Assembly (NCBI GenBank): GCA_963798185.1 | Contig: CAWCSJ010000013.1 | Span: forward strand, 217,628 to 281,627 | Length of the DNA stretch: 64,000 bases | Source of the DNA: an uncultured Acidobacteriaceae bacterium | GTDB taxonomy: Bacteria; Acidobacteriota; Terriglobia; Terriglobales; Acidobacteriaceae | Direction: 5' to 3' | In this document: one piece after another, positions 5,725-36,441 of the stretch | Position numbering within the stretch: the first letter of the stretch is position 1 | How the letters are laid out: each line of letters starts with the position of its first letter | Translations under genes and position numbers: made by a program | The notes under the pieces: model-generated | The model's input: only the letters and a program-made list of their open reading frames with translations | Databases searched by the model: none | What the model was told of the DNA's origin: nothing

Positions 5725-7236
5725 TTGAGCAAACTTCCACAGACCCTGGGCGAGCTGCGCGGTAGCTCGCAGTTTTCTGAGCAACAGGTGCGCACCCGCC
5801 GCGTTAAAGACGAAATGCGCGACAACCTGATGGCGCGCCTGCGCCATGATGGTCCCATCTTTCCCGGCATCGTCGGCTATGACGATACGGTGGTGCCGCA
5901 GATCGTGAATGCGGTATTGTCCCGCCATAATTTCATTCTTCTGGGATTGCGCGGGCAGGCCAAGAGCCGCATTCTGCGCGCGCTGGCCAGCTTGCTCGAT
6001 CCGCATGTGCCTTACCTGAGCGGCTGCGAAATCCACGACAATCCTTATGCGCCGATTTGCCGCCGCTGCCGCGAATTGCTGGCCAACAATCCCGACAACG
6101 CGCCAATTTCGTATCTGACTGCCGAAGATCGCTACGTGGAAAAGCTGGCGACGCCCGACGTCACCATCGCGGACCTGATCGGCGACATCGATCCCATCAA
6201 GGCGGCCAAGGGCGGCCACGAGCTGGGCAGCGAGTACACCGTCCACTACGGACTGTTGCCGCGCGCCAATCGCGGCATCTTCGCTATCAACGAACTGCCC
6301 GATCTCGCCGGCAAAATTCAGGTGGGGCTGTTCAACATCATGCAGGAAGGTGACGTGCAGATTAAAGGCTACCCGGTGCGCATGCCGCTCGACGTGGCGC
6401 TGGTGTTCAGCGCCAACCCCGAGGATTACACCGCTCGCGGCAAAATTATTACGCCGCTGAAAGACCGCATCGGCTCCGAGATTCGTACGCATTATCCGGC
6501 GAGCATCGAAGAGGGCATTGCCATCACGGCGCAGGAAGCGTGGACGGCGCGCAACGGCCTGCAGTTACAGATTCCGGAATTTGTGAGCCAGGTGATCGAG
6601 CAGATTGCCTTCATCGCGCGCGAAGACAAGCGCGTGGACAAGCGATCCGGTGTGAGCCAGCGGCTGCCCATCAGCGCCACGGAAAACGTCGTCTCCAACG
6701 CCGAGCGGCGCGCGATTCGCTCGGGCGAGAAGCTGGTGGTGCCGCGCATCGGCGACATCTACGCCGCGCTGCCGGCGATGACCGGCAAACTCGAGCTGGA
6801 ATACGAAGGCGAACTGAAGGGCGCAGACAACGTGGTGCGCGAGATTATTCGCGCCGCGGTCGCGCGCGCCTACGACAAATATTTTCATGGCAGCGGCAAC
6901 ATGAACCAGGTGGTGCAGTGGTTCGATCTGGGTGGCGAAATCCAGATGCGCGACTCCGCCGGCGCGCAGGAGATGCTGCACAACCTGCGCAGCATTCAAG
7001 GGCTGCTGGATAAATTGAGCGGCCTGGGGCTTAGTGGGAAAGAGCCGTCGGAGGTGCTGGTTTCGGGGGCGGAGTTCATTCTGGAAGGCCTCTATGCGCA
7101 CAAGAAAATTGGGCGCAGCGAAGAGCGGACATTCACCGCCGGCGAGAAACAGCCGGTACGCGAGAAGCCGCGCGTCCGCACCGAAGAGGACGACGAAGTG
7201 CCGGATTTGCGGAGGCACAGAAGGCCGTTCAATTAG
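5725..7236 (+). CDS. BchI/ChlI-like AAA+ ATPase (Mg-chelatase-related; often annotated as sigma54-interacting)
   Basis: TTG start with GGAGG about 10 nt upstream. P-loop-like LLGLRGQAKS, Walker B-like IFAINELPDL. 503 aa. A vWA partner lies downstream. Confidence 0.75.
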   Translation: MSKLPQTLGELRGSSQFSEQQVRTRRVKDEMRDNLMARLRHDGPIFPGIVGYDDTVVPQIVNAVLSRHNFILLGLRGQAKSRILRALASLLDPHVPYLSGCEIHDNPYAPICRRCRELLANNPDNAPISYLTAEDRYVEKLATPDVTIADLIGDIDPIKAAKGGHELGSEYTVHYGLLPRANRGIFAINELPDLAGKIQVGLFNIMQEGDVQIKGYPVRMPLDVALVFSANPEDYTARGKIITPLKDRIGSEIRTHYPASIEEGIAITAQEAWTARNGLQLQIPEFVSQVIEQIAFIAREDKRVDKRSGVSQRLPISATENVVSNAERRAIRSGEKLVVPRIGDIYAALPAMTGKLELEYEGELKGADNVVREIIRAAVARAYDKYFHGSGNMNQVVQWFDLGGEIQMRDSAGAQEMLHNLRSIQGLLDKLSGLGLSGKEPSEVLVSGAEFILEGLYAHKKIGRSEERTFTAGEKQPVREKPRVRTEEDDEVPDLRRHRRPFN

Positions 7237-7242
7237 GGGCGA

Positions 7243-7291
7243 GCAATCAGCAATCAGCACTCAGCACTCAGCATCCAGCACTCAGGCTTCA
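7243..7291. repeat. heptanucleotide tandem array (GCAMTCA units)
   Basis: About 7 units, starting 6 nt after the stop at 7236. It is the reverse complement of the 7717-7835 array. Confidence 0.9.
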
Positions 7292-7320
7292 GAACGAGAA
7301 TCGCAGATCGGAGATTCAAA

Positions 7321-7698
7321 ATGAAGGACTTCAGAGATTTGGATGTTTGGAGGAAGGCGCACTCCGCCACTTTAGCTGTTTATCGCGCCACCGCCGATTA
7401 TCCGAAGGAAGAGCTGTACGGACTGACTTCACAGATGCGAAGGTGCTGCGCTTCTATTCCGGCGAATATTGCGGAAGGGTGCGGACGGCGCGGAAATGGC
7501 GAGTTCCATCGATTTCTGACGATAGCGATGGGCTCAGCTAGCGAGTTGGAGTATCACCTTTTACTCTCGCATGACCTGGGCTTTCTGGAGTTGACAAAAT
7601 TCGACGCTTTGACTTTTCAGACGCAGGAAATCAAGAAAATGCTGGCGTCGTTGATTCGGCGGGTCGATTCGGAACGTGCCCACGCCATGCCAGCCTAG
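7321..7698 (+). CDS. four-helix-bundle protein (23S rRNA intervening-sequence protein family)
   Basis: 125 aa. DLDVWRKAH, YGLTSQMRRCCASIPANIAEG and GSASELEYHLLLS are typical of the family. GGAGA lies 8 nt upstream of the ATG. Confidence 0.85.
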   Translation: MKDFRDLDVWRKAHSATLAVYRATADYPKEELYGLTSQMRRCCASIPANIAEGCGRRGNGEFHRFLTIAMGSASELEYHLLLSHDLGFLELTKFDALTFQTQEIKKMLASLIRRVDSERAHAMPA

Positions 7699-7716
7699 TT
7701 ACAGGTGTTCGTTTTG

Positions 7717-7835
7717 GCTGCGTGCTGAGTGCTGAATGCTGAGTGCTGAATGCTGAGTGCTGAATGCTGAGTGCTGAGTGCTGAGTGCTGAGTGCTGAGT
7801 GCTGAGTGCTGAGTGCTGACTGCTGACTGCTGAGT
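7717..7835. repeat. heptanucleotide tandem array, 17 units of GCTGAGT/GCTGAAT/GCTGACT
   Basis: Exact 7-nt phasing counted from 7717 to 7835. It ends 8 nt before the ATG at 7844. Confidence 0.95.
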
Positions 7836-7843
7836 GCTTCTTC

Positions 7844-9085
7844 ATGCGATTCATCAAATACAAAAAATACGTTCCCGAGCCGGCCTCTGAGATGAGCATG
7901 GAGGACCTGCTCAGCGCGCTTTCCGATTATCTGCTGCAGAGCGGTTTCCAGCAGCAGTACATGGATTTCTACGACCTGAAGGACGCGGAGCAAACGCTGG
8001 ACGATCTGCGCCAGGCCATCGCCGAGGCGCTGCTTAACAGCGACATGCTGGACCAGCAAATGCGCGAGCAGATCGAGAACATGAGCCCTGAGCAGATGGA
8101 AGACCTGATCGAGCAGCTGATCGAGCGCATGGAGCAGGAAAACTACATCAACGTGGATGCGCCGCACGATCCCACGCGCAGCTCGACCGCCGGGGGCCAG
8201 GTCGGCGACGCGCAATCGCAGGCGCGCTTCGAGATCACCGACAAGGGGCTCGACTTCCTCGGCTTTCGCGCGCTGCGCGATCTGCTGGGCTCGCTCGGCA
8301 AATCGAACTTCGGCCGCCACGACACGCGCGACCAGGCCACCGGCATCGAGGCCAGCGGCGCGTCGAAGACCTACGAATTCGGCGACACGCTGAACCTGGA
8401 CATCACCGCGACGCTGTCGAACGCGATTCAGCGCGAAGGCCTGCACCTGCCGCTGAATATCGAGTACAGCGATCTGCAGGTGCATCAGTGCGAATATCAG
8501 TCGTCGTGCGCCACTGTGCTGCTGCTCGACTGCTCACACTCCATGATTCTGTATGGCGAGGACCGCTTTACGCCCGCCAAGAAAGTGGCGATGGCGCTGT
8601 CGCATTTGATCCGCACGCAATACCCTGGCGATTCGCTGTCGCTGGTGCTGTTTCACGATTCGGCGGAGGAGTTGCCGCTGTCGCAGCTGGCACGCGTCAA
8701 GGTCGGGCCGTATTACACCAACACGCGCGAGGGCCTGCGCCTGGCGCAGCGCATCCTGCAACGCCAGCGCAAAGACATGAAGCAGATTGTGATGATTACC
8801 GACGGCAAACCATCAGCGCTGACCTTGGAGGATGGCCGCATCTATAAGAACGCGTTCGGACTGGACCCGCTGGTGGTGAGCGAGACGTTGAAGGAAGTTT
8901 CCAAGTGCAAGCGTGCGGGAATCCTGATCAATACGTTCATGCTCGCGTCTGATTACGGGCTCATCCAGTTCGTGCAGAAGGTCACCGAGATGTGCCGCGG
9001 GAAAGCGTACTTCACCACGCCGTACACGCTGGGCCAGTATCTGCTGATGGACTACATGTCGCGCAAGACCAAGACGGTGCACTGA
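7844..9085 (+). CDS. von Willebrand factor A (vWA) domain protein, partner of the BchI-like ATPase
   Basis: 413 aa. MIDAS DxSxS is present in LLLDCSHSM, and ITDGKPSA follows later. Confidence 0.8.
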
Positions 9086-9158: not shown

Positions 9159-9425
9159 ATGGAGATCACCGTCAAGCTGCCGGACGACCTGGCCCAGCAT
9201 CCCGATCCAGGACGCGAGGCCCTGGAAGCGCTGGTGATCGAGGGCTATCGCTCGGGTGCGCTCTCGCATTACCAGGCAAGCCAACTACTGGGAATCTCAC
9301 GTTTTGAATTTGACGGCTTTCTCAAGGAACGTAACGTCTACGAACATGCCTACGACATCCAAGACCTGGACCGGGACCAGGAAACGCTCCGGAAGCTTCA
9401 AAGCAACGGCTTCCTCGAGAGATGA
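9159..9425 (+). CDS. UPF0175-family antitoxin-like protein
   Basis: 88 aa. HTH-like segment SHYQASQLLGISRFEFDGFL. 4-nt overlap with the downstream gene. Confidence 0.7.
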   Translation: MEITVKLPDDLAQHPDPGREALEALVIEGYRSGALSHYQASQLLGISRFEFDGFLKERNVYEHAYDIQDLDRDQETLRKLQSNGFLER

Positions 9426-9913
9426 TCGTCGTAGCGGATACCTCGCCGCTTAACTACCTAATTCAAGTTGATTGTGAATCGCTCCTCCCGTCGCTTTACA
9501 AACGAGTTCTCATCCCGGCAGCGGTTCTTGAAGAACTTGGCGATCCTGCCGCGCCCGCAAGCGTCAATCGATGGTTGTTGAACGTCCCCACATGGGTCGA
9601 AGTTAAAAAAACCACGACCTCTCCTGATGCGGCGCTGAGCTTTCTTGATCCCGGTGAACTACAAGCGATTCAACTAGCGCAGGAGCAGCGGGCTGACCTG
9701 CTCCTGATCGATGAACGCAGAGGCCGTCTTGAGGCTATGCGGCGCGGATTAGCAACAACGGGAACCCTGGGAATCCTGCTTACCGCTGCTGAGCGCGGCT
9801 TGATCGACGCAGCCGCCGTATTCCATCGGCTCATTACCGAAACCAATTTCCGCACGACAGCTGACCTTCGCAGCAGGTTTTTGGCGGAAGTGCGAGACAT
9901 AGATAAGCGCTAG
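9422..9913 (+). CDS. DUF3368 (PIN-like) putative toxin
   Basis: 163 aa. N-terminus is MIVVADTSPLNYLIQV. Paired with the UPF0175 gene. Confidence 0.7.
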   Translation: MIVVADTSPLNYLIQVDCESLLPSLYKRVLIPAAVLEELGDPAAPASVNRWLLNVPTWVEVKKTTTSPDAALSFLDPGELQAIQLAQEQRADLLLIDERRGRLEAMRRGLATTGTLGILLTAAERGLIDAAAVFHRLITETNFRTTADLRSRFLAEVRDIDKR

Positions 9914-10170
9914 ACGCCGGGTTTTGGTTCTGATGGTGCGGTGTCGTCGGCTTTCTTCACCGCAGCTTCGGCGGCCTGGAAGCCAATCTTGGAATGGGTC
10001 CCGTCGCAGAAAGGTTTATTGACCGATCCACCGCAACGGCACAGAGAAAATGCTGTCTTGCCGGTCAGGTCGTAGGGATTGCCGTCAGCATCCACCAATT
10101 CGACTACGCCCTCGGGCGCTTCTATGCGGAACGGCCCATCTCTGCGGACCGTGATTTTCACTTGTGCCAT
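9910..10170 (-). CDS. CDGSH iron-sulfur domain protein
   Basis: 86 aa with the exact CDGSH signature CRCGGSVNKPFCDGTH. Confidence 0.85.
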   Translation of the reverse strand: MAQVKITVRRDGPFRIEAPEGVVELVDADGNPYDLTGKTAFSLCRCGGSVNKPFCDGTHSKIGFQAAEAAVKKADDTAPSEPKPGV

Positions 10171-10210
10171 GTGTTGCCTCCATCTCGATTGTAACGGAGA
10201 GGGGACGATA

Positions 10211-10430
10211 GCAATCAGCAGTCAGCTCAGCAGTGCGTCGAAAATTATTCACCACAGAGACACGCAGGGCACGGAGTGGCAGATGCGGCGCAACTGGGCT
10301 TTTTTGGATCAAGAGGGTCAAGTCGCAGGAATAGGGGTTCTTCGACTCCTCGCTGCGCTCCTCGCCGCGGATGACAATCAAAAGCAGGTCCCTCAGCTCG
10401 GTCGTCGCGGCGACCTCGGTCGGGATGACA
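10211..10430. repeat. composite repeat block
   Basis: Short heptamer run at 10211-10235, CACCACAGAGACAC motif at 10247-10285, and a B-type hairpin element (AAAGCAGGTCCCTC...CGGTCGGGATGACA) at 10336-10430. Confidence 0.75.
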
Positions 10431-10445
10431 GCTCGAAACTGAAGT

Positions 10446-10529
10446 GCTGATAGCTGACGGCTGATAGCTGATAGCTGATGGACGACAGCTGAATGCTGAG
10501 TGCTGACGGCTGACAGCTGATAGCTGACA
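10446..10529. repeat. heptanucleotide tandem array, 12 units of GCTGAnn
   Basis: Phasing was counted unit by unit. A partial 13th unit, GCTA, runs into the stop-codon complement at 10531-10533. Confidence 0.95.
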
Positions 10530-10530
10530 G

Positions 10531-12750
10531 CTATTTTTTGAACGCCACGTTTACCAGCAGCTTCTCGCCTTCCACATCGACGACGTTGCAAAACGTCCGA
10601 TCGCCGCGGCGGGTGAAGTCGAGACCCACGCGGCTGCTGGCGATGCGCAAGTTGCGAATGTGCAGATGGTCGAGCCAGTCGGGCAGTCGCGGGTTGATGA
10701 TGTTCAACTCGCGGCGCGGCGCGCTGGGCCGAATTCCCAGCACCGACGCCAGGACCAGAAACATTGCACCCGAGGCCCAGGCCTGCGGCGAGCATGACAC
10801 CGGATAATGCACCGGCTCATCGTATTCGCGACGCTGCATTCCGCAAAAAAGTTCAGGCAGGCGATAGTCGCGAAATTCCACCGCCGTCTGGTACAGCGAG
10901 GTCAGGATGCTGAGGGCGCCGTCGCGCAATTCGTTGACGGCCATGCCGTGCGCGATGATGGAATTATCGTGCGGCCACACCGAGCCGCGATGGTAGCTGA
11001 GCGGATTGAACACCCGCTCTTCCTGCGACATGGTGCGCCATCCCCAGCCGGTGAACATATCATCGCGCATCAGGCGATTGGCGACGGTGCGGGCGCGTTC
11101 CTTGCTGATGATGCGGCCGAACAGCAGATGCCCCGGGTTAGACGAAATCACCTCCAGCGGCTTCTTGTCGGCGTCGAGCGCCATGGCGTAGAAGCTGCGG
11201 CTCGGCACCCAGAAGGCGCGGTCGAAGCGGCGGGCCAGCTCCAGCGCATCGCGCTTCAGCCGGTCGGCGATCTTGATGTCGCCGAATGTCCGCAGCAGCG
11301 ACGACATGCGATACTTTGCGTCGTACACGTAGCCCTGGACTTCGCACAGCGCGATGGGCGGCTTGGCGATGGTGCCATCGCGATGCATGTTGGCGTCCCA
11401 GGAATCCTTCCAGCCCTGGTTGACCAGGCCCTTGGGCGAGCGCCGCAGATATTCGACAAAGCCGTCGCCGTCAAGGTCGCCGTACTTGTCGATCCACTCC
11501 AGCGCGGCGTAGGCATGCGGCAGCATCTCCTGAACCAGTGCTTCGTCGCCGGTCCAGTTGAAGGTCTCGCTTAGCAGGACGAGGAACAGCGGTGTGGCAT
11601 CGACCGAACCGTAGTAGGGGCCGAAGGGCATTTCGTCGTGACGGGTCATTTCGCCGTCGCGATACTCGTGCAGAATCTTGCCCGGCTCTTCGTCGCGCCA
11701 GTCGTTGTATTCCTTGCCCTGGTAACGGGCCAGCACGCGCAGGGTCTCGACCGCCAGTTGTGAATTCAGCGACAGCGACTGATAGGCCGCAATGATGGAG
11801 TCGCGGCCAAACATGGTGGCGAACCAGGGAATGCCAGCGGCGATGATGTGCTGATCGCCATCGGGAATTTGCAGCGCGTGAAAATCGCCGATGCCGGTCT
11901 TGAGCATCTCGTCGAAGACTTCGTTGTCGCTGGTGAAATTGGTGGAGCTGGATTCCCAGCGCGAGAAATTGGCGCGACGCTGCCGGAGCTGGTAATCGAA
12001 ATCGTAGTTCTGGGCGCGCGATGGCCGGGCTTCCACGAATGGCGTTACCGATATTTGCAGCTCGACGCGCTTCAACGGCTCCAGCCGCAAATCCCAACGG
12101 GCAATGCGTTCCTCGACTTGGGCGGGCAGGGGCGCCAGCTTGATCAGGGTCTGGCGCATCACGTTGTCGAGCCCGCGGTAATAAAAGGCGATGGTATTTT
12201 CGCCGACCACGGGCTGGTAATACTGGCCGTGCTGTTCCCGGGCCACGCCGCGCACCTGAAACACGTCGACGAAGTCGGCGTCGAAGAGCAGCTCGACGGT
12301 AAAGTCCACGGGGATGAGATTGAAGTTTTCAAAGCTCAGACGGTCGAAGAGCATCTCCGACGCCAGCACCTGTTCCCGGCGCACGTGGACGGTGTTCTGA
12401 GGAAGATCGAAAGAATCGCGCAGGGTGATGTTGCCGGTGGTCAGCTCGATCTGCGCGGAAAATGTTTTTTCGGTGCTCGACGAGAGCACCATGGCGCGAT
12501 GGCCGCCGATGCGCAGCTCCAGGTGGCTGAGGAAGCGCGTGTCGTCGTGGAAAAAACCAACGTCTGGCGCGCCCGCCGGATGAATGTCGCCGGCGACATT
12601 GGTAGCGCTGAAGGTTTTGCCGTCGATGAGGGTCAGGTTGTCAACCTTCCGCGGCTCCATCGCGGGAAAGGCAAAACGCGGCTCCAGGTAAGGCGACGGG
12701 ATCTCGATCAACCGCTGGTCGGGAAGTGTGAGATACGTACTCATCAGCAA
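10531..12750 (-). CDS. glycogen-debranching-enzyme-like protein (N-terminal GDE domain plus amylo-alpha-1,6-glucosidase six-hairpin domain)
   Basis: 739 aa. The block GIPWFATMFGRDSIIA and overall length are typical of bacterial/archaeal GDE_C proteins. Confidence 0.75.
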   Translation of the reverse strand: MLMSTYLTLPDQRLIEIPSPYLEPRFAFPAMEPRKVDNLTLIDGKTFSATNVAGDIHPAGAPDVGFFHDDTRFLSHLELRIGGHRAMVLSSSTEKTFSAQIELTTGNITLRDSFDLPQNTVHVRREQVLASEMLFDRLSFENFNLIPVDFTVELLFDADFVDVFQVRGVAREQHGQYYQPVVGENTIAFYYRGLDNVMRQTLIKLAPLPAQVEERIARWDLRLEPLKRVELQISVTPFVEARPSRAQNYDFDYQLRQRRANFSRWESSSTNFTSDNEVFDEMLKTGIGDFHALQIPDGDQHIIAAGIPWFATMFGRDSIIAAYQSLSLNSQLAVETLRVLARYQGKEYNDWRDEEPGKILHEYRDGEMTRHDEMPFGPYYGSVDATPLFLVLLSETFNWTGDEALVQEMLPHAYAALEWIDKYGDLDGDGFVEYLRRSPKGLVNQGWKDSWDANMHRDGTIAKPPIALCEVQGYVYDAKYRMSSLLRTFGDIKIADRLKRDALELARRFDRAFWVPSRSFYAMALDADKKPLEVISSNPGHLLFGRIISKERARTVANRLMRDDMFTGWGWRTMSQEERVFNPLSYHRGSVWPHDNSIIAHGMAVNELRDGALSILTSLYQTAVEFRDYRLPELFCGMQRREYDEPVHYPVSCSPQAWASGAMFLVLASVLGIRPSAPRRELNIINPRLPDWLDHLHIRNLRIASSRVGLDFTRRGDRTFCNVVDVEGEKLLVNVAFKK

Positions 12751-14717: not shown

Positions 14718-14752
14718 CAGTTGTCAGTAGCCAGTTGTCAGTTGTCAGGCTG
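14718..14752. repeat. heptamer array CAGTTGT CAGTAGC CAGTTGT CAGTTGT
   Basis: Ends 14 nt before the ATG at 14767. The same 28-mer occurs at 33181, and its first 24 nt at 17310. Confidence 0.9.
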
Positions 14753-17309: not shown

Positions 17310-17337
17310 CAGTTGTCAGTAGCCAGTTGTCAGTGAA
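17310..17337. repeat. heptamer array CAGTTGT CAGTAGC CAGTTGT CAGTGAA
   Basis: Starts 8 nt after the stop at 17301. It is a direct repeat of 14718-14741. Confidence 0.9.
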
Positions 17338-17560: not shown

Positions 17561-17623
17561 TTGCTGAAAGCTAAGGGCTGATGGCTAAGACCTAATGGCT
17601 AATTGCTAGTTGCTAGTTGCTTA
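17561..17623. repeat. heptamer array, 9 units (TTGCTGA ... TGGCTAA ... TTGCTAG)
   Basis: 7-nt phasing counted. Ends 10 nt before the ATG at 17634. Confidence 0.85.
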
Positions 17624-20422: not shown

Positions 20423-20497
20423 TCTTGTCACCTCGGGTCAGCAAAGCTGCCGTAACGAGTAAGAACCAGAATTTCGGTATGGCGTTGTATGGAGAAA

Positions 20498-20706
20498 GTG
20501 GATAGTGGGTGGTGGCTAGTGGATAGCGCTATCGATAAAGCTTCTGCCAGGGACGGAAACAGCAGGTCCCTCCGCTCGGACTGAAGTCCTCGGTCGGGAT
20601 GACAAAATCAAAGAAGTGGATAGTTGTGGAAAAGTGGATAGTCAAGCGTGCCGATCAAAGGTCTGGTTAAAGCTGATAGCAGATGGCTGAAAGCTGACGG
20701 CTGGTT
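20498..20706. repeat. composite repeat block
   Basis: GTGGATA-type heptamers at 20498-20525 and 20616-20643, a short B-type hairpin at 20556-20606, and GCTGAnn heptamers at 20672-20706 that run into the stop codon of the gene ending at 20705. Confidence 0.85.
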
Positions 20707-29240: not shown

Positions 29241-29282
29241 GCACTTGCTAACGGCTAATTGCCAAATGCTAAATGCTGGTTG
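29241..29282. repeat. heptamer array, about 6 units (CTAACGG CTAATTG CCAAATG CTAAATG)
   Basis: Ends 1 nt before the stop-codon complement of the gene ending at 29284. Confidence 0.8.
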
Positions 29283-33180: not shown

Positions 33181-33256
33181 CAGTTGTCAGTAGCCAGTTG
33201 TCAGTTGTGAGCGAGAGCAACCCCAGACCCTTCGACTCCTCGCTTTGCTCGTCGCT
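33181..33256. repeat. heptamer 28-mer CAGTTGTCAGTAGCCAGTTGTCAGTTGT plus a B-type arm fragment
   Basis: The 28-mer is identical to 14718-14745. CCCTTCGACTCCTCGC lies at 33228. Confidence 0.85.
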
Positions 33257-36406: not shown

Positions 36407-36441
36407 GTCTGACAACTGATAACTGACAACTGAAAACTGCC
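36407..36441. repeat. heptamer array GTCTGAC AACTGAT AACTGAC AACTGAA AACTGCC
   Basis: Ends 1 nt before the stop-codon complement at 36443. Confidence 0.85.

Follow-up and report, generated by a model that had tools for sequence, protein, structure and literature searches.

What is a gene for a small helical protein doing between two genes that normally stand side by side, and why are the tandem heptamers on either side of it complementary to each other? The question is raised by a 64-kb window (the whole stretch of DNA analyzed here, C13:217628-281627) from a 4.7-Mb metagenome-assembled genome (MAG) of an uncultured Acidobacteriaceae bacterium, with 58% G+C and 4.95% contamination. In this window, a 607-nt spacer (7237-7843) separates the genes for an AAA+ ATPase and a von Willebrand factor A (vWA) domain protein. 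It holds a gene for a four-helix-bundle (4HB) protein of family PF05635 between two inverted heptamer arrays, or arms, which with the gene they enclose take up the entire interval between the stop codon of the ATPase gene and the start codon of the vWA gene. Our reading, which we consider probable, is that positions 7242-7838 are one of a class of cassettes in which a PF05635 4HB gene lies within complementary heptamer arrays at the boundary of co-transcribed genes. As comparison with relatives shows, the gene and its arm type form a unit in inheritance, relocation, and replacement, and the arms are hypermutable simple-sequence arrays, ranging from 4 to 17 units among orthologues with complementarity kept. 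The cassette and its host genes are laid out as follows.

5725-7236, + strand: BchI/ChlI-like AAA+ ATPase, the upstream host gene (503 aa; TAG stop at 7234-7236)
7242-7292, + strand: left (5') arm, about seven units of AGCAMTC (from Tandem Repeats Finder and the inverted-repeat arm 7242-7295)
7293-7320, + strand: leader, with the Shine-Dalgarno sequence GGAG at 7310-7313, 7 nt ahead of the ATG (from the sequence)
7321-7698, + strand: 4HB gene, PF05635/TIGR02436, the single open reading frame (ORF) of the spacer (125 aa)
7699-7716, + strand: trailer, from the 4HB stop codon to the right arm (from the sequence)
7717-7838, + strand: right (3') arm, 17 units of GCTGAKT (GAGTGCT, GAATGCT, GACTGCT), the reverse complement of the left arm
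7844-9085, + strand: vWA-domain protein, the downstream host gene (413 aa; VWA_2, E 1.3e-9)

The three ORFs (5725-7236, 7321-7698, and 7844-9085) and both arrays lie where an initial annotation of the sequence had placed them, with the gene content it gave. The left arm begins 6 nt past the ATPase stop codon and reads, in order, AGCAATC twice, AGCACTC twice, AGCATCC, AGCACTC, and AGGCTTC; Tandem Repeats Finder delimited this array to 7242-7285 (period 7, 6.3 copies). The right array, 7717-7838 (period 7, 17.4 copies, 92% matches), stops 5 nt short of the vWA ATG. Complementarity between the arms is 89% over 54 nt, or 91% over 44 nt, and the 31-nt pairing with a single mismatch noted in the initial annotation is present, the left arm pairing with CTGAGTGCTGAATGCTGAGTGCTGAGTGCTG. 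Across the whole window, the cassette arms are the top-ranked inverted repeat within 900 nt. Arms were counted as complementary at a score of ≥12, and controls had the same geometry shifted into the flanking genes; the locus scored 39, while only 1 of 220 controls reached the threshold. The arrangement of the arms exceeds chance. When the RNA of 7230-7850 was folded, as had been proposed as a check, the minimum free energy structure (-252 kcal/mol) was closed by an arm-arm stem (z = -3.55), and 0 of 20 shuffles were as good. No sigma-70-like promoter or terminator-like site was found in the spacer (7237-7843), and no rRNA match was found in 6900-8200. A search of the spacer against Rfam gave no family match; one sub-threshold small RNA match was located inside the vWA gene.

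The 4HB protein matches PF05635 (E 8.7e-38; 129.2 bits, cut-off 33.8) and TIGR02436 (E 7.2e-38; 129.2 bits, cut-off 24), as well as the solved pentameric bundle XCC0516 (PDB 2GSC; E 5.9e-20) and PDB 2RLD (E 1.6e-5). The family motif R-x3-S-x3-N-x2-E (PMC3936711) is present as RRCCASIPANIAE. Ratios of nonsynonymous to synonymous divergence (dN/dS) of 0.04 to 0.12 against three orthologues indicate that the protein is under strong purifying selection and so is functional. Synonymous divergence of the 4HB gene (dS 0.7 to 1.6) is about twice that of the vWA gene (dS 0.40 to 0.59) for the same lineage pairs (against L061, L062, and L064). The excess means that the gene mutates faster or that, through lineage-to-lineage exchange, the cassette alleles predate the sequences that flank them.

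Relatives with and without the insert were found at the same junction. The 4HB gene was absent from it in all 29 congeneric species genomes and in all 76 further related genomes, from several genera. The ATPase and vWA genes are adjacent in 23 of the 29 congeners, with spacers of 48 to 531 nt, and in 76 of 80 related genomes the vWA gene immediately follows the ATPase, at a median distance of 97 nt. In five other congeners the vWA gene is no longer beside the ATPase. Upstream ATPase orthologues in ~100 relatives are 86 to 95% identical. The empty-site comparison suggested by the initial annotation thus bore out its view that normally adjacent genes have been split by a gene insertion: the pair is adjacent and gene-free in relatives, and filled and empty alleles fall within one clade. 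An orthologous filled site occurs in three metagenomic lineages from ENA and JGI assemblies (L061, L062, and L064), with identities of 89 to 92% for 4HB, 93 to 94% for the ATPase, and 97 to 98.5% for vWA. These orthologues have the same arm family (CAGCAYT/ARTGCTG), and leader and trailer are partly conserved, the leader in L064 and the trailer motif GTTTTGGCTG in L061 and L064, with a variant in L062. They carry 4 to 8 units per arm; because orthologues have 4 to 6 units, the 17-unit right arm here is a recent, lineage-specific expansion.

In the ATPase nucleotide tree, a single clade with full support (Shimodaira-Hasegawa-like approximate likelihood ratio test, SH-aLRT, 100) mixes four filled and five empty rows. 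The window's own row is sister to the rest of this clade, and well-supported branches force at least two changes of filled/empty state. Since filled and empty rows share one shallow clade, at least one gain must have been followed by at least one loss (or exchange). The 4HB gene at the ATPase/vWA junction was gained in a shallow Korobacteraceae-like clade, inherited vertically, and lost or exchanged at least once.

Empty junctions are not bare of repeats. Nearly all empty congener spacers have heptamer arrays, whose units are distinct in almost every species, and 9 of 23 are clearly complementary; among the 76 more distant genomes, an inverted repeat scoring ≥12 was found at 40 junctions. The inverted arrays that the initial annotation described as bracketing the insert are therefore real here, but they are not peculiar to it, as empty junctions carry arrays too. 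The junction is a hotspot for change. In one relative (G036, locus L004), 1.3 kb of unrelated DNA containing a long ORF has been inserted, flanked by a single remaining left unit and a right array of GCTAATG. A repeat resembling a miniature inverted-repeat transposable element (MITE), GTCATCC...GGATGAC, occurs in some heptamer hairpin loops. The repeated element GTCATCCCGA...GGATCTGCGGTT...GGATGAC occupies hairpin loops at unrelated sites, namely C16:5676-5957 and the ATPase/vWA junctions of L016, L020, and L026, and looks like a MITE that also uses hairpin loops.

To place the locus within a class, a total of 111 PF05635 homologues from ~55 related genomes were compared. Complementary arms flank 78 of the 111 homologues, as opposed to 1 of the 220 controls, with period 7 in both arms in 68. 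Both neighboring genes are co-oriented with the 4HB gene in 87 cases and antisense to it in 2. The 111 cassettes occupy 34 junction types, 18 of them singletons, whereas dprA/topA is filled in 25 genomes. Between different junctions, the fraction of 6-mers shared by left arms rises from 0.005 where the proteins are ≤45% identical to 0.44 where they are >75% identical, and in the latter group arms are shared in 78% of pairs. At the same junction, left arms accompanying proteins 45 to 55% identical share a mean of only 0.014 of their 6-mers (n = 65). The dprA/topA junction holds three discrete gene-plus-arm types, with arms CAGCYRT, CGCTNTT, and TTAGCTN; the proteins are 70 to 76% identical within a type and 50 to 55% between types, while the topA flank shows no more divergence between types than within them (81 to 84%). 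Arm type travels with the gene lineage and not with the junction, so that cassette is a fair word for the unit. A fixed YAG/CTR polarity of the arms was also considered and dropped, since units such as CTAGCAA hold both words and the count is uninformative.

The MAG itself contains five PF05635 genes, two of which are strain duplicates of one locus (trpE/trpG). A survey of these genes, proposed together with the initial annotation, found all five inside inverted heptamer arms between co-directional, normally adjacent genes. The junctions are trpE/trpG, dprA/topA, pdxS-like/pdxT, and ATPase/vWA, and the arm units (AGCACTC, AGTTTCG, or TTCGCTN) are each locus's own. The two strain copies at trpE/trpG (C26 and C27) differ by one heptamer. 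At the pdxT junction (C13:173827-174500, ~44 kb upstream of the window), a CGCTNTT arm pair that encloses just a 3' fragment of a 4HB gene is followed by a full-length 4HB copy, which has a premature TAA stop and a separate right arm. This tandem arrangement looks like a cassette in decay, and decaying 4HB copies, truncated or with internal stops, are still found within arms.

Heptamers are also abundant in this genome away from 4HB genes. Arrays of period 7 number 520, whereas periods 6 and 8 are represented by 135 and 184; merging gave 578 heptamer arrays and 71 inverted neighbor pairs, of which ~60 are gene-less. Most inverted pairs enclose 50 to 250 nt without a gene, and ~1.5% of intergenic regions hold hairpins. 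With 578 arrays genome-wide, heptamer arrays are not private to the 4HB insert. A tblastn search (E ≤ 1) of the ~60 gene-less hairpins found just one 4HB remnant (C13:173912-173959) and so does not establish that all gene-less hairpins are gutted cassettes. The commonest array family, CAGTTGN (~90 arrays), has no 4HB gene in the assembly; the relatives L130, L133, and L144 have one. At C10:28177-28417, CAGTTGN/NCAACTG hairpins lie between apparent tRNA genes (judged from their end sequences), and heptamer arrays may thus also occupy spacers between RNA genes.

Across 301 Acidobacteriota genomes, array load, scored as (CTRANNN)3CTRA plus a reversed control pattern, was compared with PF05635 gene count. 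The two are correlated at the level of genomes (Spearman 0.69, n = 301), genera (0.73, n = 186), and families (0.72, n = 89), and a PF05635 gene is present in 60 of 65 array-rich genomes versus 74 of 236 others. Within-family contrasts were positive in 17 cases and negative in 8, which is not significant (P = 0.11). Exceptions occur in both directions, with five array-rich genomes that have no gene and four gene-rich genomes that have none of the scanned array types.

Several further features of the window concern the neighborhood of the cassette. The upstream ATPase gave weak profile matches to Mg_chelatase, AAA_5, and Sigma54_activat and partial matches to TIGR02442 and TIGR02030. Directly after vWA, a UPF0175 (88 aa) and DUF3368 (163 aa) pair (9159-9913) with overlapping stop and start codons has a toxin-antitoxin-like look. 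A gene-less heptamer hairpin (10203-10532) lies between a CDGSH gene (9910-10170, - strand) and a gene encoding 739 aa (10531-12750, - strand); its left arm is short (AGCAATC, AGCAGTC), its right arm has 12 units (GCTGAYA), and its core ends with GGATGAC-type repeats. Seven more intergenic arrays, with units CAGTTGT, GCTAATG, CTGACAA, and others, are located at 14718-14748, 17310-17334, 17570-17621, 20497-20526, 29246-29277, 33181-33208, and 36409-36439.

How such a cassette would work and spread can be sketched from its layout. It is probably read within the host operon transcript, because it lacks promoter and terminator signals and cassettes show a strong orientation bias; the 4HB protein would then be translated from its own Shine-Dalgarno sequence. 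In single-stranded nucleic acid, the arms could close a stem of ~45 to 54 bp over the 50 nt ahead of the vWA start codon, and by analogy with the intervening sequences (IVS) of 23S rRNA, this stem would be a plausible RNase III substrate, separating the cistrons. Slippage in the DNA, together with templated correction of one arm by the other, may be what mainly keeps the arms complementary, and relocation probably proceeds via recombination among dispersed arrays of the same repeat family. This route of relocation is favored because the cassette has no recombinase gene and no target duplication is definable. In the broad sense the cassette is a mobile insert, as filled and empty alleles occur among close relatives and the same unit is found at unrelated sites; from sequence comparison, mobility in the strict sense is unproven. 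An autonomous transposable element or MITE was rejected, as there is no transposase or recombinase ORF, arm sequences vary from copy to copy, and filled and empty boundaries reveal no definable target duplication. The initial annotation spoke of an IVS-like selfish cassette: the cassette and its likeness to an IVS have been borne out, but "selfish" is unproven, and the gene is under strong purifying selection.

A number of observations weigh against the cassette reading as set out above. Arm mismatches in the 78 cassettes comprise 51 G·U, 74 A·C, and 70 others, with no G·U excess, and the first arm sets gave G·U to A·C counts of 19:22 and 9:9; the mismatches look like an unfiltered mutation spectrum. 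Since G·U does not exceed A·C, there is no support for selection on a sense-RNA stem, and the spectrum makes it more likely that complementarity is kept in DNA. The cassette contains no transposase or recombinase gene, the 4HB gene being its sole ORF. Comparison of filled and empty boundaries yielded no definable target-site duplication or exact empty-site join, because arrays sit in filled and empty alleles alike. Heptamer arrays are already at the ATPase/vWA junction across the genus, and the arms here could therefore be partly resident and not imported. The inner branching of the 10-row ATPase clade fits a single gain with losses, allele exchange by recombination, or repeated gain. The exact 17-unit length of the right arm rests on a MAG assembly.

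The resident arrays lead to an alternative in which only the gene was inserted, into a junction hairpin kept by the host, the 4HB gene having landed in the loop as the only insertion-tolerant place. The arrays at nearly all empty congener junctions, the inverted repeats at 40 of 76 more distant ones, and the ~60 gene-less array pairs in the genome would all be expected in that case, as would loops that also hold MITE-like repeats and the unrelated 1.3-kb insert in one relative. However, arms at one junction are unrelated where the 4HB genes are divergent, while related genes at different junctions share theirs; dprA/topA holds three gene-plus-arm types despite equal flank divergence; and hairpins, present in ~1.5% of intergenic regions, surround 4HB genes at a far higher rate. 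We consider gene-only insertion unlikely. It is also possible that the cassette acts mainly as an IVS-like RNA element, in which the arms would form a double-stranded RNA stem and a cut by RNase III would free the 4HB mRNA and uncouple vWA from the ATPase. The predicted closing stem (z = -3.55), its position over the 50 nt ahead of the vWA ATG, and the co-orientation of cassettes with operons (87 versus 2) are consistent with this proposal. In structured RNAs that are under selection, G·U is usually in large excess. Here G·U mismatches are fewer than A·C, transversions are as frequent as either, and there is no Rfam family match. A precedent exists in the Coxiella IVS, which belongs to the same gene family and is excised by RNase III at a 28-bp heptamer-bearing stem (PMC4990558). 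Taking both sides together, a functional RNA stem is a serious possibility by analogy, though one that we would stop short of calling probable.

A different possibility is that the 4HB oligomer binds, or helps to propagate, its own heptamer type, with gene-less arrays as its targets or relics. The correlation of array load with gene count at all three taxonomic levels, the presence of the gene in most array-rich genomes, the covariation of protein clade and arm unit, the strong purifying selection on the protein, and the 3' gene fragment retained in one gene-less hairpin might all suggest such a cognate pair. Opposed to it are the ~90 CAGTTGN arrays that have no resident 4HB gene, the genomes that have arrays or genes but not both, the nonsignificant within-family sign test (17 versus 8), and the change of arms while the protein stays similar at one junction (L054/L056 versus L036-L042). 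From these sequence patterns, we regard a cognate protein-repeat pair as rather doubtful. Two further explanations are very improbable. One is that the gene encodes the Avd accessory protein of a diversity-generating retroelement: PF05635 is the Avd family, and homologues show a faint match to PF22296 (bAvd), but PF05635 genes are also found at the trpE/trpG, dprA/topA, and pdxT junctions. This reading was rejected, as neither a reverse transcriptase nor template and variable repeats were found near the gene, where six neighboring proteins were scanned (the ClpB-like ATPase, the BchI-like ATPase, vWA, and the UPF0175/DUF3368 pair included). The other is an assembly artefact or chance arrangement of simple repeats. 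The MAG has 4.95% contamination and long tandem arrays are hard to assemble, but the same layout recurs at the orthologous site in independent ENA and JGI assemblies, and complementary arms are found at 78 of 111 homologues compared with 1 of 220 controls.

Returning to the cassette reading, the locus offers a clean and datable case, with the junction empty in ~100 relatives and filled in four lineages. The combination of a selected gene, arms that vary yet stay complementary, and an arm type that follows the gene makes a protein-repeat link directly testable. As a tentative idea that we would not put above a minority chance, PF05635 4HB proteins and inverted heptamer arrays might form one genetic system, in which the oligomer is the sequence-specific partner of its own repeat, and which takes in the spread, the relics, and the 23S IVS. 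If this were true, gene and arms would have spread between transcribed junctions without a transposase, most simply via recombination between arrays of the same family; gene loss would have left hundreds of gene-less heptamer hairpins in intergenic DNA; and ORF-bearing 23S rRNA IVS would be copies that landed in rRNA. Two old puzzles come together at this locus, namely the role of IVS/Avd-like 4HB proteins outside retroelements and the abundance of tandem 7-nt repeats in some genomes. If cassettes also cut or fold operon transcripts, they would represent a widespread unannotated layer of operon regulation.

The cassette class is apparently an undescribed variant of IVS-like elements. In the literature, we found no paper linking the PF05635 gene family with heptamer repeats; PF05635 genes within cas operons have been noted, with no mention of repeats (PMC3936711). 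The S23p IVS of Coxiella burnetii has a 28-bp stem and tandem heptamers whose number varies between strains, and its ORF is decaying and apparently untranslated; mobility of the IVS was proposed but never shown (PMC4990558). Like the ORF-bearing 23S IVS of Leptospira and Coxiella, the cassettes carry a PF05635-family ORF within a host transcript, between terminal inverted repeats that form a long stem. As in the Coxiella IVS, heptamers lie in the stem region with variable copy number (here, orthologues with 4 to 6 units versus 17, and C26 and C27 differing by one). In contrast, the cassette is located between two protein-coding cistrons and not in a 23S rRNA helix (25 or 45), and unlike in Coxiella, its arms are long arrays (7 plus 17 units) and its gene is under strong purifying selection.

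Other known systems share single features with the cassettes. Repetitive extragenic palindromic (REP) sequences and bacterial interspersed mosaic elements (BIME), and the system of REP doublets forming hairpins (REPIN) with REP-associated tyrosine transposases (RAYT), are hairpin-forming repeats dispersed through intergenic DNA, frequently where co-transcribed genes meet; non-autonomous copies are numerous and protein-coding partners few. In REPIN-RAYT the partner is an IS200-like transposase (RAYT), whereas the cassettes have a helical bundle of 125 aa; and where REP/BIME elements share one conserved palindrome, cassette arms are made of tandem heptamers in many sequence types. The Avd protein of diversity-generating retroelements is a basic, pentameric four-helix bundle with nucleic acid-binding activity; the 4HB protein belongs to the same fold superfamily as Avd (PF22296). 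Cyanobacterial short tandemly repeated repetitive (STRR) sequences are intergenic heptamer repeats. The TAACTGA heptamers of Beggiatoaceae, Cyanobacteria, and Bacteroidetes are direct repeats with no associated gene family (PMC4679880). Like those repeats, the arrays described here are made of 7-nt units that fill intergenic DNA, end a few nucleotides before start codons, are abundant genome-wide, and are patchy across phyla (PMC4679880), and the CTGACAA array family of this genome is one base from TAACTGA. Unlike the TAACTGA repeats, the arrays here are paired in inverted orientation, and genomes with more of them tend to have more PF05635 genes.

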